Notes under the pieces: generated by a model
Seen by the model: only the letters and a program-made list of their open reading frames with translations
Told to the model about the DNA's origin: nothing
Databases searched by the model: none
Translations under genes and position numbers: made by a program
Part shown: in pieces, positions 1,846-21,684 of the stretch
How positions within the stretch are numbered: position 1 is the stretch's first letter
Layout: each line of letters opens with the position of its first letter
From: a virus
Taxonomy: Duplodnaviria > Caudoviricetes
DNA: 25,406 nucleotides
IMG/VR virus record: IMGVR_UViG_3300045580_000297
Location: 1 to 25,406 of that record
Reading direction: 5' to 3' (one strand)

Positions 1846-1891
1846 ATGCCACCTACCGGGGAGGGGTCGAAGGGCCTGTACGGCCTTCCTA
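1846..1891. repeat. Bipartite intergenic motif, copy 1 (ATGCCACCTACCGG-N21-CGGCCTTCCTA)
   Basis: The 14-mer and 11-mer recur exactly at 4470-4483 and 4507-4517. Confidence 0.75.
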
Positions 1892-1957: not shown

Positions 1958-2108
1958 GTGTCCAGTGCCCAAAGCGACCCCACCGCACTAGCTGCGGGTG
2001 CTGGACCTCCTCTGTTGGGTTGACGAGGCGTCCCTTGTCTCGCGATGGCGAGGGACAAAAAAAAGGGGTAGGTGCCGCTGGTCCCGGTCACCTACCCCTT
2101 CTTGTTTT
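1958..2108 (+). ncRNA. Putative structured small RNA (about 150 nt)
   Basis: Stems 1961-1970/1996-2005 and 2030-2039/2047-2056 contain G-U pairs that work only on the + strand. It has a candidate promoter and ends at the hairpin 2063-2100. No convincing ORF. Confidence 0.5.
2057..2108. terminator. Intrinsic terminator, probably bidirectional
   Basis: Perfect 12-bp stem AAGGGGTAGGTG (2063-2074)/CACCTACCCCTT (2089-2100). A8 on the left gives a U-tract for the minus strand; CTTGTTTT lies on the right. It sits between convergent units. Confidence 0.85.
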
Positions 2109-2110
2109 CG

Positions 2111-2127: not shown

Positions 2128-2991
2128 TCAGGCCTTGAGGGCCTTCATCTCCTCAGCCAGTGTCCAGAGAGCCCTGTTGAGCTTGATGTCGCCATCGACC
2201 GACTGCACAGCGCGTGTGCTCATGTGGCGGCGAACGCCCGGGTTATCCTTTTCAGTGGCTGTGTAGTTCAAGCCACCCTTGATCAGGTTCTCCTGAGCCC
2301 TGTTGTACACGGTCCAGAGGTCATCGAGGTTGTCGGCCCGCCTCCGGGGGTTCAGGACCTGAAGGGGCCAGAGGTCAGCAGGAACCTCATCGAAGCGAAG
2401 CTGGATGGCTGCCTTCGCAAAGGCACGCTTCTCATCGACGTTGAGTTCGATGGCCTTCATCTGCTCGACTTGGTCGATGACCTCATCAGAGTGCTGGAGC
2501 ACCTCGTATGAGCCCTCGATCACCTTGTCGATGGCGTTCGAGCGGTGAGGCACCTTCACATCACCGAAGAGGCTCTCGCTGACCACGAGGCCGTTCAGGC
2601 AGACCAGCCGGAACAGGCCCATCATCAGGTGATACTGGCTCGTGCCATCGTGGGCGTTCTTCAGGACCACCTCAGGGAAGGTGTCGCCCACTGACTTGAC
2701 GTTGTTCTCGCGGCGAAGGCGGATCATGTGCTTGGTGAAGGCACGCTTCTCAGCATCCTTCGATCCGCCCACCGACACGCCAGTGACCCTGAAGCCCTCC
2801 TTCATCAGTGCACCGAGCATCTCGTGGGTCGGGATGTGCACGAACCGCTCTGAGCGAGAGCTATGGGGCTCCTCAGCGAAGATGGCCGGGGCATGTGCCC
2901 GGATGGTGTCGAGGTCGAGGAACTCGCCCGGGCGAGCCTGAAGACGCACGGCACCACGGCCAAAGACGGAAGCGCGGTTGATCATGTTCAT
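2128..2991 (-). CDS. DUF932 (DUF945; YafZ/YfjQ-like) family protein
   Basis: APAIFAEEPHSSRSERFVHIPT...FTKHMIRLRR...PEVVLKNAHDGTSQYHLMMGLFRLVCLNGLVV...DLWTVYNRAQENLIKGG...DIKLNRALWTLAE. Start set at 2991 (AAGGAG RBS); the ORF-track extension runs through a ribozyme. Confidence 0.92.
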   Translation of the reverse strand: MNMINRASVFGRGAVRLQARPGEFLDLDTIRAHAPAIFAEEPHSSRSERFVHIPTHEMLGALMKEGFRVTGVSVGGSKDAEKRAFTKHMIRLRRENNVKSVGDTFPEVVLKNAHDGTSQYHLMMGLFRLVCLNGLVVSESLFGDVKVPHRSNAIDKVIEGSYEVLQHSDEVIDQVEQMKAIELNVDEKRAFAKAAIQLRFDEVPADLWPLQVLNPRRRADNLDDLWTVYNRAQENLIKGGLNYTATEKDNPGVRRHMSTRAVQSVDGDIKLNRALWTLAEEMKALKA

Positions 2992-3009
2992 GGTAGTTCT
3001 CCTTGGGTT

Positions 3010-3061
3010 GATCTCATCAGCACTGGCCTCACCAGTGGACCGCCTCACGGCGGTTTCGATC
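3010..3061 (-). ncRNA. Type II hammerhead ribozyme HH1
   Basis: Minus strand: GAUC-GAAA-C-CGCC-GUGA-GGCG-GUC^-CACUGG-UGAGG-CCAGUG-CUGAUGA-GAUC. Complete core and all three stems paired. Predicted cut between 3038 and 3037. Confidence 0.95.
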
Positions 3062-3065
3062 TGCA

Positions 3066-3464
3066 TCACTTGATCCGCATCACCTCGACGTAGTTGCCGC
3101 TGGTGGCGCTGGTCATGAAGGACCCCGGCCCCCAGTATCGCGTGCACCATGCCGTGATGCCGCCTGAGAGGTTGTCCTTCTTGAACTTGTCGAGGGGCAC
3201 CTGAGCCACCTCCCCGGGCTTCAGGCCCTCGATGAGGGGCACGAAGTAGGCCATCTGCTCACCCTTCTTGAAGATGGGCCCGCTGCGCTTTTTCTCAGGA
3301 GCGGCTGCGAGGTATTCTGTGAAGGTCTGCTGCTTCTGCACCTCAGGCCTGTTCGAGTGAATGCGGCCATCTGGGGCCACGATCTCGAACTCGCAGCCCA
3401 TGTTGTGGAGGATGGTCGTGCAACGTTCCATCCAGTCGAGTTGAAGCTTCGATACGGTCTTCAT
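3066..3464 (-). CDS. Hypothetical phage protein (132 aa)
   Basis: GAGG RBS, phage-like codon usage, stop 4 nt before HH1. Confidence 0.8.
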   Translation of the reverse strand: MKTVSKLQLDWMERCTTILHNMGCEFEIVAPDGRIHSNRPEVQKQQTFTEYLAAAPEKKRSGPIFKKGEQMAYFVPLIEGLKPGEVAQVPLDKFKKDNLSGGITAWCTRYWGPGSFMTSATSGNYVEVMRIK

Positions 3465-3471
3465 GTGGTCC

Positions 3472-3660
3472 TCACTTCGGGTTGTCGATGTCGAGTTGAG
3501 CCTGACGCTTCAGCACCTCAGCGCATGCCCTAACACTCAGGCACGCCTCGAAGGCCTCGTTCGCCTTGCCTTCCTTGAAGGCTGCTTCGACGGTGTCGGT
3601 GAACTCCCTCATCATGGCGATGATGTTCGAGGCCTTCACCTTGCTATCAATAGACGCCAT
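3472..3660 (-). CDS. Small hypothetical protein (62 aa, MASIDSKVK...)
   Basis: Strong AGGAGG RBS upstream of the ATG at 3660; overlaps the end of the upstream gene. Confidence 0.75.
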   Translation of the reverse strand: MASIDSKVKASNIIAMMREFTDTVEAAFKEGKANEAFEACLSVRACAEVLKRQAQLDIDNPK

Positions 3661-3940
3661 GTGCGCCCTCCTGTTCGATGTGGTCGATCTTTGCAGTCTC
3701 GCGTTCAGCGAAGCTGATCCAGTAGTCGATGCGGTCCTCCTCAGCGAGGAAGATGCCAAGCTGGCGCTGAGCACGCTTCAGGATGCGGCCCCACACCATC
3801 AGTGAGTTCAGGTTGGCGCGGGTCCGAAGCTCCCGGTCATCCTTGTCGATGATCTCATGGTAGGCATTGTAGGCCACCGCGAGGTCACGGATGTCATCCG
3901 TCATGACGGTGACTTCCTTGTTCACTGGCATTTCGATCAT
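3647..3940 (-). CDS. Hypothetical protein (97 aa)
   Basis: AAGGAG RBS directly after HH2; phage-like codon usage. Confidence 0.8.
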   Translation of the reverse strand: MIEMPVNKEVTVMTDDIRDLAVAYNAYHEIIDKDDRELRTRANLNSLMVWGRILKRAQRQLGIFLAEEDRIDYWISFAERETAKIDHIEQEGAHGVY

Positions 3941-3957
3941 GCTGATCTCCTTGGGTT

Positions 3958-4009
3958 GATCTCATCAGTGCCAGCCTTACTGGCAGACCCCTTTGCAGGG
4001 GTTTCGATC
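3958..4009 (-). ncRNA. Type II hammerhead ribozyme HH2
   Basis: Minus strand: GAUC-GAAA-C-CCCU-GCAA-AGGG-GUC^-UGCCAG-UAAGG-CUGGCA-CUGAUGA-GAUC. Predicted cut between 3986 and 3985. Confidence 0.95.
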
Positions 4010-4257
4010 TAGAAGGGGATTTCAGGGTCGAAGTGGATGTTGGCCTTGGGCCTCACCTGTTGGGCGTAGACCTGTTTGCCGTTATCGTCGATCACCTCGA
4101 AGTCGATGTCGTAGAAGCCTTCGCTGGCTGCCATCATGCTGGCCAGCTTCAGTGCGTAGGCGGCAGTCATGATGCCGTCCCGTTCGAGGCGGCATATTGA
4201 GCGGGGGTCGCAGGGGCTGGTGCCTTCATAAGGCATGCGGGAAATGATGCGGTACAT
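4009..4257 (-). CDS. Small hypothetical protein (82 aa, MYRIISR...FDPEIPF)
   Basis: The RBS GAGGAG is supplied by the HH3 core. The TAG stop overlaps the first base of HH2. Confidence 0.75.
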   Translation of the reverse strand: MYRIISRMPYEGTSPCDPRSICRLERDGIMTAAYALKLASMMAASEGFYDIDFEVIDDNGKQVYAQQVRPKANIHFDPEIPF

Positions 4258-4260
4258 GTT

Positions 4261-4312
4261 GATCTCCTCAGTGCGGGCTTGACCCGCAGACCCTCTCACG
4301 AGGGTTTCGATC
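4261..4312 (-). ncRNA. Type II hammerhead ribozyme HH3
   Basis: Minus strand: GAUC-GAAA-C-CCUC-GUGA-GAGG-GUC^-UGCGGG-UCAAG-CCCGCA-CUGAGGA-GAUC. Predicted cut between 4289 and 4288. Confidence 0.93.
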
Positions 4313-4324
4313 TGTCCGTCCTTC
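4312..4324. repeat. 13-bp inverted repeat, right arm (CTGTCCGTCCTTC)
   Basis: Reverse complement of 2111-2123. Confidence 0.75.
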
Positions 4325-4340
4325 ACGATGTCAATCAGCA
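4322..4340 (-). promoter_or_regulatory. boxA-like antitermination element (TGCTGATTGACATCGTGAA)
   Basis: Resembles boxA (TGCTCTTTAACA) and the TTGACATCGT-type variants I recall from alphaproteobacterial rRNA leaders. It lies in the predicted 5' leader. Confidence 0.45.
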
Positions 4341-4358
4341 GCACCTTTCGGTCCTCCT

Positions 4359-4387
4359 CATATGGACCTGAACTTGGATGAAGTTAA
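4359..4387 (-). promoter_or_regulatory. Putative promoter of the ribozyme operon (TTAACT-N17-CATATG) with an overlapping palindrome AACTT-N5-AAGTT
   Basis: -35 at 4387-4382, -10 at 4364-4359, 17-nt spacer; palindrome at 4371-4385. Confidence 0.45.
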
Positions 4388-4469
4388 CGGGCTCTCACGC
4401 ATGGCAGCCATGCACTGGGAACATGACTATTCGCAGGGAAGGCTCAGGACGGGCAAGTCCGTTCCCCCT

Positions 4470-4517
4470 ATGCCACCTACCGGCCCCCTCGTTCGAGGGC
4501 CCTCAGCGGCCTTCCTA
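4470..4517. repeat. Bipartite intergenic motif, copy 2 (ATGCCACCTACCGG-N23-CGGCCTTCCTA)
   Basis: Direct repeat of 1846-1891. Confidence 0.75.
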
Positions 4518-6479: not shown

Positions 6480-7921
6480 TGACCTTCGAGACCATATGGC
6501 AGCCTCAGCCCGGGCCACAGACGGCCCTCCTCACATGCCCCATCAACGAAGTCTGCTATGGAGGCGCACGAGGGGGAGGGAAGACAGACGGTGTTCTGGG
6601 TGAGTGGGCCAGCCATGCTGCTGAATACGGCCAGAACGCCATAGGCCTGATGGTACGCCGCCAGCGCACGGAACTCATCGAGACCATGGAGCGCAGCAAG
6701 GTGCTCTACAGGCCACTGGGGGCCACCTTCAACGAAAGCAGCAAGATGTGGCTCTTCCCAAATGGAGCCCGTCTGCGCTTCGCCTACCTCGAACGCGACA
6801 GTGATGCGAACGGGTATCAGGGCCACTCATACACAAGGGTCTACATCGAGGAGGCCGGGAACTTCCCGGTCCCCACGCCCATCTTCAAGCTCATGGGCAC
6901 CCTTCGATCAGGTGCTGGCGTGCCATGCCGCATGATCCTCACATGCAACCCCGGTGGGCCCGGGCACCAGTGGGTGAAGGCACGCTACATCGACCCCGCA
7001 CCCATGGGGTACAAGCCCATCGAGGACACCTTCGTGAACCCTTGGACGCACGAGAAAGTCGTCCGTTCACGGATATTCATCCCGAGCTTCGTCACCGACA
7101 ATAAGTTCCTTGGCACCGACTACGTGGCCATCCTGCAACAGGTGGGCAACGACAACCTCGTGAAGGCATGGCTCCTTGGCGACTGGAACATCGTGGAAGG
7201 GGCCTTCTTCGACCGCTGGACGCATCACAACATCGTGCGGCCCTTCGAGATACCGCAGGACTGGCTGCGCTTCAGGGCTGCTGACTGGGGCTTCAGTGCG
7301 CCCTTCTCGATGGGCTGGTATGCCGTTGCTGGCGATGACGCTGGCGACTACGGGCTCCAGAAAGGATGCCTCGTGCGGTATCGGGAGTTGTACACGGTCA
7401 AACCGGGGCAACCGAATGTTGGACTTCGTCTGACTACGGAAGAATTAGCTGAGCGCATCAAGGAGATGAGCCGTGGGGAAAAATACGCATATTCCGTCAT
7501 CGACCCTGCCGCCTTTGCCGAGTCTGGGGGGCCATCTATCGCTGAGCGTTTTGCTCGTGCTGGCGTGGAGTTCAAGCGCGGTGACAATAGGCGCTTGGGC
7601 GCTCGCGGCGCAATGGGTGGCTGGGACATGGTTCGTGCACGGATCATCGGGCAAGATGACAAACCAATGTTTGTCACGTTTTCGACCTGTACGGAATTGA
7701 TCCGTACACTGCCTGTTCTTCAGCATGACCCAGATAGGCCGGAAGACCTTGACACCTCACAAGAAGATCACGCCGCCGACGAGCTTCGGTATGCCGTGAT
7801 GTCCCGCCCGTGGGTGCCAAACAAGGACAGAAGCAAGGAGCCGGGGAGGACCATTCATCAAATGACATTAAATGAAGCTTGGTCTATGCTCCGCGAGCCT
7901 GTCAGGGAGGGAAGAATATGA
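6479..7921 (+). CDS. terL: Terminase large subunit
   Basis: Walker A YGGARGGGKT, Walker B VYIEEA, TCNPGGPGHQWVK, nuclease motifs AADWGFSAPFS and EDHAADELRYA. Confidence 0.97.
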   Translation: MTFETIWQPQPGPQTALLTCPINEVCYGGARGGGKTDGVLGEWASHAAEYGQNAIGLMVRRQRTELIETMERSKVLYRPLGATFNESSKMWLFPNGARLRFAYLERDSDANGYQGHSYTRVYIEEAGNFPVPTPIFKLMGTLRSGAGVPCRMILTCNPGGPGHQWVKARYIDPAPMGYKPIEDTFVNPWTHEKVVRSRIFIPSFVTDNKFLGTDYVAILQQVGNDNLVKAWLLGDWNIVEGAFFDRWTHHNIVRPFEIPQDWLRFRAADWGFSAPFSMGWYAVAGDDAGDYGLQKGCLVRYRELYTVKPGQPNVGLRLTTEELAERIKEMSRGEKYAYSVIDPAAFAESGGPSIAERFARAGVEFKRGDNRRLGARGAMGGWDMVRARIIGQDDKPMFVTFSTCTELIRTLPVLQHDPDRPEDLDTSQEDHAADELRYAVMSRPWVPNKDRSKEPGRTIHQMTLNEAWSMLREPVREGRI

Positions 7922-8352
7922 AACGCTTCGAGGATAAGGTGCTCAAGGGCGAGGGGTGCTGGCGGTGGAGCGCAGCAAAGCTCCCCACTGGCTATGGCAT
8001 TTTCAGGCTCAACGGGCGGAACCATTACGCTCATCGCCTCGCGTATGAGCTTTGGGTTGGCGAGATCAGCAAGGGCATGTTCGTGTGCCACAGGTGTGAC
8101 AACCCGTCATGCGTTCGCCCTGACCACCTCTTCCTTGGCACGAACAGGGACAACATAGCTGACAGGACAGCGAAGGGGCGCAGCCATAGGCCAATAGGGG
8201 AGAGAAACCCGAAGGCAAAGCTTAGTAGTGAAGACGTTGCAGCAATACGAAGTGACACAGGGCGTTCGAGTGACATAGCCAAGAAGTATGGCATCGCTCC
8301 AGACACAGTGCGTCACATCAGAAACCGCAGGATATGGAGACATCTGCAATGA
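7918..8352 (+). CDS. HNH homing endonuclease (HNH_3-type with C-terminal HTH)
   Basis: CWRW...YAHRLAYEL...VCHRCDNPSCVRPDHLFLGTNRDNIAD...AKLSSEDVAAIR; ATGA overlaps at both ends. Confidence 0.95.
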   Translation: MKRFEDKVLKGEGCWRWSAAKLPTGYGIFRLNGRNHYAHRLAYELWVGEISKGMFVCHRCDNPSCVRPDHLFLGTNRDNIADRTAKGRSHRPIGERNPKAKLSSEDVAAIRSDTGRSSDIAKKYGIAPDTVRHIRNRRIWRHLQ

Positions 8353-9692
8353 CTTCGAGCTTCATAAACACCTTCGCGTCCCCGGGTGACAGCGACTACC
8401 TCGCATCGAACGAGATCAGCGAGGACGGCAGGACGAAGCACCTCCAGCGCATCATCATCGAGGGCCACAGCCCCAACAGCACACAGCTTGATGCCTTCGG
8501 GCGTCTTCGTGTGTCGAACCCTCAGGTCCTTGGCTTCAGCAGCTTCGAGTATGCCCTGAACACGCTGACCATGGAGACGGCAGTGAATGGCTCAGGTGCG
8601 GTGGCCAGTCTGCCGAACGAAAGCTCGATCTCCCTCACCAACGGTGGCGGCACGAGCGGGCACTATGCCTATGCCCAGACCCGTGTGCACCATCGGTACG
8701 TGCCCGGGCGCAGCCAGCTTGTGCGCTTCACGGGCTCCTTCGGCACGCCAACTGCGAACGTGCGCCAGAGGGCAGGGTACTTCAACGACAGGAACGGCCT
8801 GTTCCTTGAGTACGATGGCACGACCCTCTACTTCGTGCGCCGCACCTACACGAGCGGTGCTGCCGTGGACACACGCATCGCAAGGTCTGCATGGTCTGAC
8901 CCCCTCGATGGCACTGGCGTGTCAGGCATCAACCTCGACCTCACCAAGACATGGTTGTGCTGGATCGACATGGAATGGCTTGGTGTGGGTCGGTATCGCT
9001 TCGGCTTCGCAAGCCCCACCACTGGCGAGCTTGTCACGTGCTACGCTGCTGCTGGCACGAACGTGCTCTCAGTGCCCTACATGACAACGGCATCCCTGCC
9101 CGTGCGCTTCGAGATACAGAACACTGGCGCAGCATCGAGCCTGACCATGAAGTGGATATGCTATGCCGTGGACACCGAGGGCGGTGATGAGGGTGATCTC
9201 CCCATCCAGAACGCCATCGACAGCGGCACCACTGCCACGGCCCTAGCCAGCGGCTCATACAGGCCCATCCTTGCCATCAGGGCCGACACTGTCGTGAGCG
9301 GCGGATCAGTGCCGAACAGGGGCCAGATCATCGTGAAGGGCATCAGCGTTGCGAACGTGGGGAACACGCCCATCAACGTTCAGGTGCGCCTCAATCCCAC
9401 GACACTGACGGCTGCTGGTGGCGCTGTGACATGGGCGAACACAGGTGCCATCAGTGAGAGCGCGGCCTTCACCAATGCTGCTGACACCATCGCTGGCGGA
9501 ACTCTGATCGAAAGCTTCTTCGTCAACGCCACGGCCACAGCAAAGGGCTCAGGCTCTCAGGACTTCTTCATGAAGCTGCCGCTGGTCTACACACAGCTTG
9601 GCAGCATTCAGGACGTTCTCGCCATCTCAGCCGCTGGCCTTGGCGGAACATCGTCAGCACACGCATCAATTACATGGTCGGAGGTCTACTGA
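8349..9692 (+). CDS. Beta-rich, probably virion-associated protein (DAFGRLRVS family)
   Basis: 447 aa, rich in Gly/Thr/Ser/Ala; DAFGRLRVSNP, YVPGRSQL and IDMEWLGVGRYRFGF motifs recur in viral structural hypotheticals. Confidence 0.6.
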   Translation: MTSSFINTFASPGDSDYLASNEISEDGRTKHLQRIIIEGHSPNSTQLDAFGRLRVSNPQVLGFSSFEYALNTLTMETAVNGSGAVASLPNESSISLTNGGGTSGHYAYAQTRVHHRYVPGRSQLVRFTGSFGTPTANVRQRAGYFNDRNGLFLEYDGTTLYFVRRTYTSGAAVDTRIARSAWSDPLDGTGVSGINLDLTKTWLCWIDMEWLGVGRYRFGFASPTTGELVTCYAAAGTNVLSVPYMTTASLPVRFEIQNTGAASSLTMKWICYAVDTEGGDEGDLPIQNAIDSGTTATALASGSYRPILAIRADTVVSGGSVPNRGQIIVKGISVANVGNTPINVQVRLNPTTLTAAGGAVTWANTGAISESAAFTNAADTIAGGTLIESFFVNATATAKGSGSQDFFMKLPLVYTQLGSIQDVLAISAAGLGGTSSAHASITWSEVY

Positions 9693-12457
9693 TGGCACGC
9701 ATCAAGCAGGGGCGCATCTCAGGCCTCCCATCCGTTCCCGTCATCACGCCCGGGCCGACACAGGCAGACATCGACCTCGTTCGAGAGAAAGAGGCCATGG
9801 CCAATGCTGCTCAACGCTACAACGAAATGCAGCGTGAACTCACCACCTACGGGCGAACCCTCGACGATCCACAGGGAAGCTCGTGGACGGGCAACACGGC
9901 TCAGGGCATGGGTCCTATCGCCAGCGCACGCAAGGCCACTGGTGACCTTCCTGAGGGCCCGCAAATGGGCTCCGGGGACCGCAAGAAGGCTGGCAAGTCA
10001 GGGTGGGACAAGAAGCGCGAGAAAGTGGCTGCTGCCATAGACAACAAGTTGCAGGGTGCTGGCAAGGCGGTGGACAAGGTCATCGGCCCGCACGCATCTC
10101 AGGGACTGGGCCGCATCGCTCAGGCTGGCGACATCGCAAAGTACGCCATCCCTGTGGTGGGCGACATGATCGACATCTCCGAGACCGCTCAGGGCCTCGT
10201 GAACAATGCGATGGAGGGTGACTGGCTTGGCATGGCTGGATGGGGTGCCGCTGGTGCTGCTAGCCTCCTGCCAGCCATGTTCATCGGTCCTGCGGCAAAG
10301 AACTTCCCGGTCAAGAACGCTGACGATGCGTATGATCTGCTGAAGCAGGGCGTTGATCCTGAAACCATCCGTGCACGGACGGGTATCATCTTCGACGCAT
10401 CAGGCATCCCGCGCTTCGAGATAGATGACAGCAAGGCACGCCTCACGCCGAAGGGCGAGCGTTTTGCGAAGGGTGCTGCCATCGACAAGCGTTCCCCTCC
10501 CATGCCATTCGATCAGGCCTTCGATCACCCTGAGCTTTTCGAGAACTATCCCCAGATGCGGAACTACATGACCCGCTTCGCTGAGGATGGCGGGCCCGCT
10601 GGTGCGTTCTATCCAGCATGGGGAGGTCAGGGCCCTGAGGTCGAGGCATACGGCTCCTTCGATCAGCCAGCCTTCGGGTACAAGGCACCGAAGAACCTTC
10701 AGCAAGTCATCATGCACGAGGGCCAGCATGCCGTGGACAACATCGAAGATGCTGCCTTCGGCTCGATGCCCGGGACCGTACCGAAGGAGATCAGGGACAA
10801 GTACCCGAACCTGAGCGAGTTCCAGCTTTACAAGCGAGCCGCTGGCGAGACGCTGGCAGACACGACAGCCATGCGTGCGAACCTCGATGCTGACCAGCGC
10901 GGTGCCATCTCTCCCTACCATGGCGTGGGCAGCCAGTACGATGCTCCGTACCAAGAGCAATTCCCACGCTCAGAGCAGTGGGTGGAGCGCAATGATCCCC
11001 GCTTCGCTCCCGAAGAGGGCTACAGCATCATGCACACGGCATACGACCCCTACACGCCTGAGCCCGTCACGCGCATCCTCGCGAACCAGAATGGCGAGGC
11101 ATATGGTGGTGCGTACACGGAGCGTCCTGTCATGGGCTCAGTGCCTGAGGCAGCCCCGAAGAAGAAGAGGATGGGCCCCATCGCCCTTGGCGCTCACCCC
11201 ACGACAGACCCGAACTACATCGCAGCCACGACACTCGCGAACGGTGGCTACAGCGTGAACGTGCCCACGGGCCAGAACCCCACTGATGGCTACATGATGG
11301 GCATGTACGCGAACACGGACCCTCGCAACATGGTTGTCACTGGCAACATGACGCCTGACGATGCCCGTGCCTTCTACGGCACCAACAAGAAGGTGCTTCA
11401 GGGCGAGGACAAGTATTTCGGCACATGGCATAACCCTGACGATGGCAAGACATACCTCGATGTCTCGCGGCGCTTCGGGCCCGACGAAAAGAGGGCTGCC
11501 ACGAAATTCGGTGAGCGCACTGGCCAGCTTGCTGGCTTCGACGTTGCTGCCATGGACAGCTTCCCTGTCGGGAACTGGGAGCAGTTCATAAACTCACCTG
11601 AGTTCATGACACGCATGAACGAGATGGCTGATGAGGGCGGAAAGTTCCTTGGCCAGTACCCCACGAGGCAGTGGTGGAACATGATGGGCACGGACATCGA
11701 GAAGACCTATGGCCCCGTGAACACGCCCTACATGGCTGGCTACACGGCAGCCACGGCACCGAACGCTCAGCCTCGCGAGAACCTCCAGACAGCATCTGAG
11801 TACATGCGCCGCCACATCAAGGGCGAGCCCGTGATCCAGCCTGAGTGGCGTGTGGGCGATGCTGGTGGTCCCCCCATGTCGCGCAAGCCGGGGACGAAGA
11901 TCGGCATGGAAGGCACACGTGTGGACAACCTCGAACGAGCCCGCTCAGGTGGACCATTGGGTGGTCCAAAAGTCGAGAGCGAGCGCAGGGCCATGCTTGG
12001 TGACCCTGATGCCGTTGTCCTTGACCGCTGGCACGCACGCCTTGCTGAGGACCCGAACAGGGGCATCCTCACGGAAGCTCAGGAGGGCACGGTCTCTCGC
12101 GAGAATTACCCGAAGCTCGAAGACAGGTTCAGGCAAGCTGCGGCAGCACGTGGCATGACGCCTCGCGACTTCTCCGCTGATGTGTGGACTGGCGTGCGCG
12201 AGAAGGTCAGGGGCGGTGGCGACCTGTACGGCACGAAGTACAAGCCCTCAGCAGTACGTGGCGAAAGCAAGGCCTACGCTGATGTGTGGACGGACCTCGT
12301 GAAGGAGAAGGCAGCCTTCCTGAAGATCACGCCTCAGGAGATGATGGCCCGCCTCAAATCAGGCGATGCCAACCTTCTCAGCGTCCTGCCCTTCATCCCG
12401 GGTGGCGCTGCCCTTCTCAGGGAGTTCTACGGGCCTCAGGAGCCTGAAGAGCAATGA
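9692..12457 (+). CDS. Large polyvalent protein: LPD23-like domain, HExxH zincin-like peptidase, further domains including an HhH-glycosylase-like C-terminal domain
   Basis: ETIRARTG...RFEIDDSKA...DHPELFENYP (LPD23-like); VIMHEGQHAVD (10715-10729) and YKRAAGE; C-terminal ATAPNAQPRENL...GPKV...VVLDRWHAR...TPRDFSADVW. Coupled by TGATG. Confidence 0.7.
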   Translation: MARIKQGRISGLPSVPVITPGPTQADIDLVREKEAMANAAQRYNEMQRELTTYGRTLDDPQGSSWTGNTAQGMGPIASARKATGDLPEGPQMGSGDRKKAGKSGWDKKREKVAAAIDNKLQGAGKAVDKVIGPHASQGLGRIAQAGDIAKYAIPVVGDMIDISETAQGLVNNAMEGDWLGMAGWGAAGAASLLPAMFIGPAAKNFPVKNADDAYDLLKQGVDPETIRARTGIIFDASGIPRFEIDDSKARLTPKGERFAKGAAIDKRSPPMPFDQAFDHPELFENYPQMRNYMTRFAEDGGPAGAFYPAWGGQGPEVEAYGSFDQPAFGYKAPKNLQQVIMHEGQHAVDNIEDAAFGSMPGTVPKEIRDKYPNLSEFQLYKRAAGETLADTTAMRANLDADQRGAISPYHGVGSQYDAPYQEQFPRSEQWVERNDPRFAPEEGYSIMHTAYDPYTPEPVTRILANQNGEAYGGAYTERPVMGSVPEAAPKKKRMGPIALGAHPTTDPNYIAATTLANGGYSVNVPTGQNPTDGYMMGMYANTDPRNMVVTGNMTPDDARAFYGTNKKVLQGEDKYFGTWHNPDDGKTYLDVSRRFGPDEKRAATKFGERTGQLAGFDVAAMDSFPVGNWEQFINSPEFMTRMNEMADEGGKFLGQYPTRQWWNMMGTDIEKTYGPVNTPYMAGYTAATAPNAQPRENLQTASEYMRRHIKGEPVIQPEWRVGDAGGPPMSRKPGTKIGMEGTRVDNLERARSGGPLGGPKVESERRAMLGDPDAVVLDRWHARLAEDPNRGILTEAQEGTVSRENYPKLEDRFRQAAAARGMTPRDFSADVWTGVREKVRGGGDLYGTKYKPSAVRGESKAYADVWTDLVKEKAAFLKITPQEMMARLKSGDANLLSVLPFIPGGAALLREFYGPQEPEEQ

Positions 12458-20286: not shown

Positions 20287-21684
20287 ATGACACGCCCTAC
20301 ATCGACCCTCTACCAGATGGACTACCAGAACCCTCACGCACAGAACGCCCTCAGGGTTCCCGTCCTCGTTCTCTGCAATACATCAGACGAAAAGCTTCGC
20401 GAGAACATCGCAAAGAACTCAGCACGCCCGGGCAAGTGGGTGTGCGCTCAGCCGCCCTTCGACAAGACGGCCATCCTCGTGGGTGGCGGGCCATCTGTAG
20501 CATACGACATCGAGACCATCAGGGAGATGTCGAAGACGGCCACCATCTTCGCCATGAATGCGGCAGCCACCTTCCTCATCAAGCACGGCATCGTCGTGGA
20601 CTATCAGGTCATCGCTGACGCGAAGCCAGAGACCGTGACGCTGGTCGAGCACGGAGCGATGAACCACCTCTTCGCATCACAGGTCGATCCCATGTGCTTC
20701 ACCATGGAGCCCGGGGCCGTCCTGTGGCACCTCCACATGGAAGGCATGGAGGATGTCTTCCCTCCCGAGCGCGTGAAGGCCGGGGGCTATTCCATCGTGG
20801 GCGGCGGCGCTTCAGTGGGCAACTCAGCATGCGCCCTCGCGTATGTGCTTGGGTACAGGAAGCTGCACCTCTTCGGGTACGACAGCAGCCACAGGGGCGA
20901 TGCCTCTCACGCATATGACCAGCCCATGAACCGCTTCATCCCTGTCATCGACGTTGAGTGGGCGGGGAAGCATTTCAGGTCATCCGTGGCCATGAAGGCT
21001 CAGGCCGAAAAGTTCATGATCACCGGACAGGCCCTGAAGCACTTGGGCTGCGAGATCACCGTGCATGGTGACGGCCTTCTCCCGACCATGTGGAACACGC
21101 CCATCGAGAACGCCACGGAGAAGGACAAGTACAGGCTCATGTGGCAGTGCGATGCCTACCGCGAGCATTCCCCGGGCGAGTACCTCGTGCAGACCTTCAT
21201 CGAGCTTGTGAAGCCTGATGACCTGATCATCGACTTCGGCTGCGGCACTGGCAGGGCTGCGAAGGCCCTGTACGACAAGGGGCACAGGGTCTTCCTGATC
21301 GACTTCGCTGACAACTGCCGCGATGAGGAGGCCATGGACCTCCCCTTCCTCGAATGGGACCTGACCCGCCCCATCCCGGCGAGGGCCCCATATGGTCTGT
21401 GCACGGACGTTATGGAACACATACCGCCTGATGATGTAGAGAAGGTTGTCTCGAACATCATGGAGGCTTCTGAGACGGTCATGTTCCAGATCAGCACGGT
21501 GAAGGATGCCTTCGGTGCCGTTCTGGGTACTGACCTACACCTGACGGTCAAGGACCATGAATGGTGGGGCTCTCTGTTCGAGCGCCTTGGATACGTGATT
21601 AAACAGCAGCAAAAGGGCGATGTGAACTCACTGTTCATCATCACCCGAAAAGGAGATGAAAATGGCAGCATTCGACCCGAGTGA
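20287..21684 (+). CDS. Fusion: DUF115/Maf (MptE-like) domain plus class I SAM-dependent methyltransferase
   Basis: N-terminal AILVGGGPS...IFAMNAA...VIADA...GGASVG...LGYRKLHLFGYDSS; C-terminal IIDFGCGTGRA...CTDVMEHIP...HLTV. Confidence 0.8.
   Translation: MTRPTSTLYQMDYQNPHAQNALRVPVLVLCNTSDEKLRENIAKNSARPGKWVCAQPPFDKTAILVGGGPSVAYDIETIREMSKTATIFAMNAAATFLIKHGIVVDYQVIADAKPETVTLVEHGAMNHLFASQVDPMCFTMEPGAVLWHLHMEGMEDVFPPERVKAGGYSIVGGGASVGNSACALAYVLGYRKLHLFGYDSSHRGDASHAYDQPMNRFIPVIDVEWAGKHFRSSVAMKAQAEKFMITGQALKHLGCEITVHGDGLLPTMWNTPIENATEKDKYRLMWQCDAYREHSPGEYLVQTFIELVKPDDLIIDFGCGTGRAAKALYDKGHRVFLIDFADNCRDEEAMDLPFLEWDLTRPIPARAPYGLCTDVMEHIPPDDVEKVVSNIMEASETVMFQISTVKDAFGAVLGTDLHLTVKDHEWWGSLFERLGYVIKQQQKGDVNSLFIITRKGDENGSIRPE

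Follow-up and report, generated by a model that had tools for sequence, protein, structure and literature searches.

Can the catalytic core of a self-cleaving ribozyme also serve as the Shine-Dalgarno (SD) sequence of the gene behind it, and if it can, do cutting and translation then control one another? The question is raised by a hammerhead on a phage fragment of 25,406 nucleotides (the window; Caudoviricetes, IMG/VR record IMGVR_UViG_3300045580_000297), which carries terminase large subunit, portal and major head genes on its plus strand. A short operon occupies the minus strand from approximately position 4260 down to 2109-2054, a hairpin that ends in a U run. It is composed of four small genes without a Pfam or PHROG family and one DUF932 gene, and is punctuated by three predicted hammerheads, HH3, HH2 and HH1. 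The features of this region, all on the minus strand, are as follows.

4258..4359, minus: in-frame leader, with GAGGAGG at 4359-4353, GTG at 4344 and 10 coding-like codons, open through HH3
4261..4313, minus: HH3, predicted type II hammerhead; core 4271-4265, G7 at 4267
HH3 parts, 5' side, minus: conserved A 4313; open 4-bp stem II, 4312-4309 with 4264-4261; GAAA 4308-4305, then stem III
HH3 parts, 3' side, minus: predicted cleavage after C17 at 4289; stem I hairpin 4288-4272; U1.7 at 4282
4264..4270, minus: UGAGGAG, core bases U4-A9 plus G10.1, likely SD of AUG 4257
4009..4257, minus: 82-aa ORF, AUG 4257 to UAG 4011-4009, without Pfam or PHROG family
3958..4010, minus: HH2, predicted type II hammerhead; U7, core 3968-3962, predicted cleavage after 3986
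3647..3952, minus: separate SD 3952-3947 and 97-aa ORF 3940-3647, no family
3066..3660, minus: two more small ORFs, 3660-3472 (62 aa) and 3464-3066 (132 aa), no family
3010..3062, minus: HH1, predicted type II hammerhead; U7, core 3020-3014, predicted cleavage after 3038
2128..3004, minus: separate SD 3004-2999 and DUF932 gene 2991-2128 (287 aa), domain match
2054..2109, minus: long hairpin ending in a U run, closing the operon

The closing hairpin is likely the intrinsic terminator of the operon; the terminator scan, with its loop limit of 8 nt, did not call it. No promoter was returned for the minus-strand operon by the promoter scan, nor any tRNA by the scan of the window. The search for a matching phage record returned none, all Atlas hits lay below 0.9, and no viral locus was found for the 97-aa neighbour protein. 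A direct repeat of approximately 45 nt (4469-4517 and 1846-1891, minus strand) flanks the hammerhead operon on both sides; its copies are 80% alike over a 25-nt seed and each folds into GC-rich hairpins, different ones in the two copies. An operator, a promoter element or a recombination site are candidate roles for it. Elsewhere, the window encodes an HNH endonuclease after the terminase gene (7879-8352), a 927-aa protein with LPD23 and DUF7178 domains (9674-12457) and an MptE-like and methyltransferase fusion (20287-21684).

The hammerhead pattern matches the window three times, and matched none of 100 shuffles. Each copy carries CUGANGA, GAAA and NUH around a three-way junction, with C3-G8, G12-A15 and GUC intact in all three, and in the fold of each, loops close stems I and III whereas the 4-bp stem II is open, the type II topology. 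All 17 predicted pairs are kept in the three copies, seven of them with compensatory changes in stems I and III; stem II is invariant across the window copies and shows complementary variation across the wider family. Hammerhead_II (RF02276) is the best Rfam family for each copy, with full-length matches of 36.6, 35.1 and 25.0 bits (E of 4e-5, 1e-4 and 0.046), all below the gathering threshold of 37 bits, at which Rfam gives no hits. As judged from sequence and predicted fold, HH1-HH3 are type II hammerheads by topology that lie below the curated RF02276 score, such that copies of this kind may be widely missed. For a loop I-3' tail pseudoknot, only 2 nt of complementarity are present in each window copy. 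Where DNA contigs of four sequencing runs cover positions 4258-4344, they show no variants; among 10 runs, none is listed as an RNA run containing this DNA's transcript.

HH3 has a G at core position 7 (CUGAGGAG), 6 nt before AUG 4257. Minus-strand positions 4271-4255 read CUGAGGAGAUCAACAUG, that is GAGGAG, 6 nt and then AUG 4257, exactly as an earlier note on this DNA had described. The same note had stated that HH1 and HH2 keep CUGAUGA and possess their own downstream AAGGAG, and these sites are indeed seen at 3004-2999 and 3952-3947, respectively; the AUG stands 21 nt behind core base G10.1 in HH1 and 20 nt in HH2. Downstream of the HH3 core no other SD was found, and the core itself offers anti-SD complementarity within the approximately 5-10 nt before a true start that are typical of an SD. 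With an assumed anti-SD tail, the duplex of the HH3 core is computed at -9.2 kcal/mol versus -2.7 kcal/mol with U7. This tail, on which all duplex energies given here are based, is our assumption and may not be the host's.

This reading depends on where the 82-aa ORF begins. Besides the query, the seven proteins returned by a HMMER scan (E of 0.001 or better) comprised three of 81-91 aa that stand alone and three long ones, and a profile search added three further stand-alone homologues to give six in total (P0002, P0003, P0006 and P0008-P0010), which were aligned. The long proteins P0004, P0005 and P0007 match only in part and were omitted; P0004, on inspection, proved to be a repeat protein whose match is short and local. 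The first residue of all six homologues (81-91 aa, 32-48% identity) aligns with Met 4257 or with the position just ahead of it. A word-index protein search found only the protein itself, and the search for the DNA context of the six homologues found none; three metagenome loci proved to be chance matches to one short peptide and were dropped. The family so defined (81-91 aa) has 14 invariant residues and a C-terminal proline plus aromatic residue, without a Pfam or PHROG match.

A start further upstream, whose SD the earlier note left unmentioned while naming GTG 4344, has to be weighed here, in which the gene would begin at GTG 4344 and read through HH3 to give 111 aa (29 extra residues), with cleavage then yielding the 82-aa form or with the core SD unused. 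The 111-aa form is the one called in the protein database, and GTG 4344 has the strongest SD among the 25 window starts scored (-12.0 kcal/mol with the assumed anti-SD, at 8-nt spacing). The 10 codons that follow score as coding, at a level reached by 0.2% of 1038 intergenic windows and 0.1% of 9634 off-frame windows. Against this, the extension is absent from all six homologues, the first 48 residues of the 111-aa form have no relative among proteins of 61-195 aa, and the leader peptide has no DNA match in viral contigs. The ribosome site at 4344 is also predicted to be buried (opening cost 9.2-10.7 kcal/mol, versus 2.5-5.8 at 4257), and an upstream in-frame start with an SD is rare in the wider hammerhead family described below (4/44). 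GTG 4344 with its SD and coding-like codons would be explained equally well, and most likely, as the leftover start of a lost first gene. That this gene starts at 4344 is highly improbable on our estimate; a minor long form may be made from there. A leader helix over the AUG was also considered; it was not significant relative to shuffled leaders (39/300). The claim of the earlier note that the ORF starts at 4257 rather than 4344 is borne out by the agreement of all six homologues, none of which has the 29-residue extension, and AUG 4257 is well supported as the start by this protein comparison.

Whether the overlap is peculiar to this locus was addressed with related hammerheads collected by patterns that contain no start codon. 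Four scans were combined: viral contigs with a GATC stem II (22/64 parts; among the matches listed), viral contigs with G7 and a free stem II (63/64 parts), the same pattern with U7 (6/64 parts), and the G7 pattern in prokaryote genomes. A structure filter (stem I of at least 5 bp, stem III of at least 3 and stem II of at least 3) kept 335 distinct copies, reduced to 303 upon removal of near-duplicates (75% identity) and of copies with less than 150 nt downstream. A close start was defined as an ATG or GTG that opens at least 30 codons and lies 3-10 nt after G10.1.

Among the matches listed, a close start follows 44 of 65 G7 copies versus 11 of 238 others (odds ratio 43, p 1e-26), the latter divided into 10/200 with U7, 0/33 with C7 and 1/5 with A7. 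The two matched scans taken by themselves give 34/49 versus 8/116. The first such ATG lies at a median of 6 nt in G7 copies and of 24 nt in the other copies (among the matches listed), and at the 11 loci that carry both kinds a close start follows 6 of 11 G7 copies versus 1 of 17 non-G7 copies. The 44 close-start ORFs form 43 families without a BLAST link, on 40 loci, and their lengths are ordinary (median 78 vs 87 aa, p 0.3); thus, the association is not one lineage's gene counted repeatedly, even if the ribozymes may share ancestry. The close AUG is the only possible start in 38/44, of which 30 have an in-frame stop within the ribozyme and the other eight lack any upstream start. An upstream in-frame start without an SD is present in two of the remainder and one with an SD in four. 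The present locus is one of those four and has the strongest such SD, which counts against the reading favoured below.

The separate SD also appears to be affected. The best downstream duplex of G7 copies with a close start has a median of -3.3 kcal/mol, versus -6.4 to -6.5 kcal/mol in the other groups (assumed anti-SD), and the loss of a separate SD from these G7 copies is well supported by this comparison. G7 is a minority form (approximately 120 pattern-matching stretches versus approximately 1400 for U7, among the matches listed); loci yielding a first-seen validated copy number 50/121 for G7 and 92/126 for U7, again among the matches listed. The 21 of 65 G7 copies without a close start also count against the favoured reading, and 15 of these 21 (71%) have an SD-like site downstream. 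In bacterial genome bins from several phyla, 12 of 33 loci with the G7 layout were validated, with a close start in 7 of the 12. At one locus (L138:1500-2530), four tandem G7 hammerheads each have an AUG closely behind them, a whole array with the core in the position of an SD. Together, the homologue starts, the association of G7 with close starts and the loss of the separate SD make it very probable, on comparison of sequences, that the HH3 core is the SD of AUG 4257, and this much is common to the three accounts of its function that are weighed below.

The 5' edge of these hammerheads is likewise shared with genes. In HH2, the base before stem II is A4010 and the first stem II base is G4009, and these first two bases of the ribozyme are the final two bases of the UAG (4011-4009) of the 82-aa ORF. 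The earlier note had proposed that this stop supplies the A-G that starts HH2, and both bases are found in the sequence where it placed them. Similarly, the 132-aa ORF (3464-3066, minus strand) ends 6 nt ahead of the conserved A of HH1. Among the matches listed, the stop of an upstream ORF of at least 55 codons falls no more than 6 nt from the conserved A in 176/293 copies; the counts for three control windows lying further upstream are 20, 5 and 3. A UAG overlaps the conserved A and G in 57 of the 84 copies with this triplet at that place. A stop codon abutting the 5' edge of the hammerhead is a family-wide trait, and an economy like that of the core and SD is thus seen on the 5' side too.

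The collected copies share further marks. The A before stem II is present in 303/303 copies among the matches listed, and was required only by the prokaryote-genome pattern. U1.7 is present in 288/288 copies with a 17-nt stem I region (among the matches listed); it was forced by the G7, U7 and prokaryote patterns and free in the GATC stem II scan. Stem II is exactly 4 bp in 287/303 copies (among the matches listed). A Hoogsteen contact between U1.7 and an A beside a 4-bp stem II has been described (PMC11875169), and by analogy the invariant A and U1.7 seen here would form that contact. A loop I-3' tail pseudoknot was considered for the family and set aside, as complementarity of at least 4 nt occurs in 2/64 G7 and 8/224 other copies and equals permuted controls. 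A 3' tail without such a structural role leaves the AUG free to move up against stem II, which likely matters. By their sequence marks, namely the open 4-bp stem II, the 17-nt stem I region, the invariant A and U1.7 and the lack of the pseudoknot, the 303 copies (L001-L405) are a distinct type II subfamily.

A 303-nt fragment between the predicted cuts of HH3 and HH2 (3986-4288, minus strand) contains the two halves from which a hybrid hammerhead could be assembled, and their stem II strands match. Its circularisation through the shared stem II is possible in principle and was set aside. Adjacent copies in the family are cross-compatible in stem II in 51/78 pairs versus 28 permuted (among the matches listed), which is explained by kinship within a genome. 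According to Perreault et al. (2011; PMC3088659), neither circles nor spliced products were detected.

What, then, would the overlap do? The known structure of the core contains the pairs G8-C3, A9-G12 and G10.1-C11.1, with G8 as the general acid (PMC11300833). The SD bases of HH3 are U4, G5, A6, G7, G8, A9 and G10.1. Since these bases hold fixed partners within the core, a catalytically folded core and an SD-anti-SD duplex cannot coexist, and the proposal that ribozyme folding and ribosome loading are mutually exclusive follows from the crystal structures (PMC11300833).

The mechanism that best accommodates these observations is composed of several steps. The sequence shows an operon interrupted by three hammerheads, with the stops of upstream genes at their 5' edges. 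As in tested relatives, each hammerhead would cut after GUC, and the cut products would separate, with only the 4-bp stem II to join them. A 5'-hydroxyl and the stem I hairpin would then form the beginning of the 3' product of HH3, followed by the SD, with the AUG 31 nt from its end. The change from U7 to G7 would have raised anti-SD pairing from -2.7 to -9.2 kcal/mol, after which the separate SD and approximately 18 nt of spacer were presumably lost, both steps being well supported by comparison. A folded core and a bound 30S subunit would exclude each other, and HH3 would likely first cleave the transcript of the operon and afterwards act as the ribosome site on the mRNA so released. HH3 is probably best read as a compacted mRNA-processing cassette of the kind already known from Perreault et al. 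(2011), with its core reused as an SD. That this reuse saves space and couples cutting to translation only modestly is, by a narrow margin, a probable account.

A stronger coupling would arise if the folded ribozyme hid the SD, such that translation had to wait until the RNA had cut itself and the 5' product had left. The fixed partners of the SD bases (PMC11300833) favour such masking, and a stem II of exactly 4 bp in 287 of the 303 matches listed suggests that the products should part easily. The invariant A and U1.7 fit a Hoogsteen contact (PMC11875169) that is invisible to the folding model, and engineered constructs with a sequestered SD made 5- to approximately 100-fold more protein with an active ribozyme (PMC5052635). 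Across the family, the computed gain in access upon cleavage is positive, with a median of 1.0 kcal/mol for the 44 G7 copies with a close start versus 0.24 kcal/mol for 190 non-G7 copies whose AUG lies far off (p 0.045), and 9/44 versus 16/190 gain at least 2 kcal/mol. This slightly higher gain of G7 copies counts against the space-saving account.

HH3 itself, however, shows no gain in access. The cost of opening the stretch from SD to AUG, precursor minus product, differs by -0.07 kcal/mol in the nearest-neighbour model (-2.0 to +2.1 kcal/mol over 28 window choices), and the earlier suggestion that translation needs cleavage first is not supported by these modelled secondary-structure energies. 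The pair probability of stem II in the three window copies is just 0.00-0.22 in the model, and the SD pairing (-9.2 kcal/mol) more than offsets the 2.5-5.8 kcal/mol computed for opening the precursor. Furthermore, in the 3' product of HH3 the SD is covered by a local hairpin of similar opening cost, no stronger than in shuffled coding sequence (143/300), and in the engineered P1 design the hairpin that cleavage left just upstream of the SD lowered expression (PMC5052635). The closed form is only marginally stable, so the predicted effect is few-fold at most and does not amount to an on/off gate. As the model lacks the tertiary core, Mg2+ and the U1.7-A contact, the computed masking is a floor, and masking of the SD may be larger in reality; no measured rate for a G7 core was found in the literature. 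Translation that waits for cleavage is, on this evidence, unlikely.

The control could also run in the opposite direction. A 30S subunit on the core would unfold the ribozyme and delay cutting, so that cutting would occur mainly on idle mRNA, and ribosomes terminating on the UAG would act likewise on HH2. Consistent with this, the energy of the SD duplex outweighs what opening the ribozyme is computed to cost, and stops overlap or abut the conserved A at the frequencies given above (176/293, with UAG overlap in 57/84, among the matches listed). The overlap with stops is equally explained by economy, however, because the A is fixed and a G comes next in nearly all copies. Moreover, in the non-G7 copies, which are the large majority, the ribosome site lies away from the core and the stop layout is the same (137/229, among the matches listed). 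Cutting gated by ribosomes is the less credible of the two directions of control, and quite improbable in our estimation.

In broader form, either direction would make this a natural ribozyme-controlled switch: in a recurring subset of phage hammerheads the core would be the ribosome site, cutting and loading would control each other (cutting turning the gene on, or ribosomes holding off cutting), and the base at position 7 would set the coupling gene by gene. At this locus, the upstream start could add a long form made from uncut RNA only. Such a switch is a tentative possibility, which the evidence leaves in some doubt.

Type II hammerheads were described by Perreault et al. (2011; PMC3088659) together with clusters that flank prophage genes. 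Three triple clusters cleaved in vitro and one in Escherichia coli, and the processing of long transcripts into gene-length mRNAs was proposed. The present operon resembles these clusters (RF02276) in its type II topology, canonical core and tandem copies flanking genes or short blocks in a phage operon; it contains three such copies, in a window that also carries terminase, portal and major head genes. It differs in that the type II copies of Perreault et al. mostly have the loop I-3' tail pseudoknot, whereas the subfamily described here is without it and has the 4-bp stem II and the invariant A and U1.7. The main text of that paper (PMC3088659) contains no occurrence of Shine-Dalgarno, RBS, ribosome, translation or stop codon, and its Dataset S1 may hold G7 examples. 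Type II hammerheads have also been found to cleave in D. vulgaris cells (PMC8782182). Perreault et al. (PMC3088659) further found the antirestriction gene ardA behind such ribozymes. In the present operon, the DUF932 gene (2128-2991) stands directly behind HH1; by analogy with ardA, an anti-defence role of the operon is a lead only. Of 11 viral DUF932 loci, none carries a hammerhead by the structure filter used here.

The closest designed counterparts are engineered on-switches in which the SD is hidden in a ribozyme stem (PMC5052635, where the hammerhead design of Wieland and Hartig 2008 is cited and twister versions were tested). These likewise place the SD inside a ribozyme fold, from which it is there freed by self-cleavage. 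They set the SD in a stem against a designed anti-SD, whereas in this natural RNA the SD is the catalytic core and the predicted masking is weak. In RiboJ-type insulators, a hammerhead is placed before a separate RBS (PMC8942793). Like RiboJ, HH3 is predicted to remove upstream sequence and to leave a uniform, hairpin-led 5' end before the ribosome site. RiboJ is engineered, with the ribosome site separate from the ribozyme as in HH1 and HH2, whereas in HH3 the site lies in the core.

Among natural systems, cleavage by type I hammerheads enables cap-independent initiation in fungal and plant RNA viruses (PMC13725137), which similarly have a viral hammerhead directly before a start codon. Those systems are eukaryotic, cap-independent and type I, and the text of that study contains no occurrence of Shine-Dalgarno; hits in DNA bacteriophages were discarded in it. 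Dependence on cleavage was shown in those viruses (PMC13725137), whereas for the phage HH3 it is a hypothesis. In a search of mainly open-access literature, no paper was found in which a natural hammerhead core serves as an SD. Two reviews call the role of hammerheads in bacteria and phages open (PMC6155905, PMC6765202).

On comparison of sequences, the reuse of the core as an SD is well supported, and its regulatory reading is weaker. The layout is found at dozens of phage genes that are unrelated to one another, and its benefit likely lies more in compactness than in turning translation on. The G7 pattern shows that selection ties these hammerheads to the translation of the next gene, and thus that the hammerheads act on mRNA. 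The two functions are separable, because the SD depends on position 7 and catalysis can be turned on or off at other single bases. If the coupling is strong, engineered ribozyme switches would have a natural counterpart in this RNA; if it is weak, a very compact part would still remain, a ribozyme and ribosome site within approximately 55 nt that would be usable as an insulator. In either case, the overlap of core and SD provides a direct handle on what phage ribozymes do.
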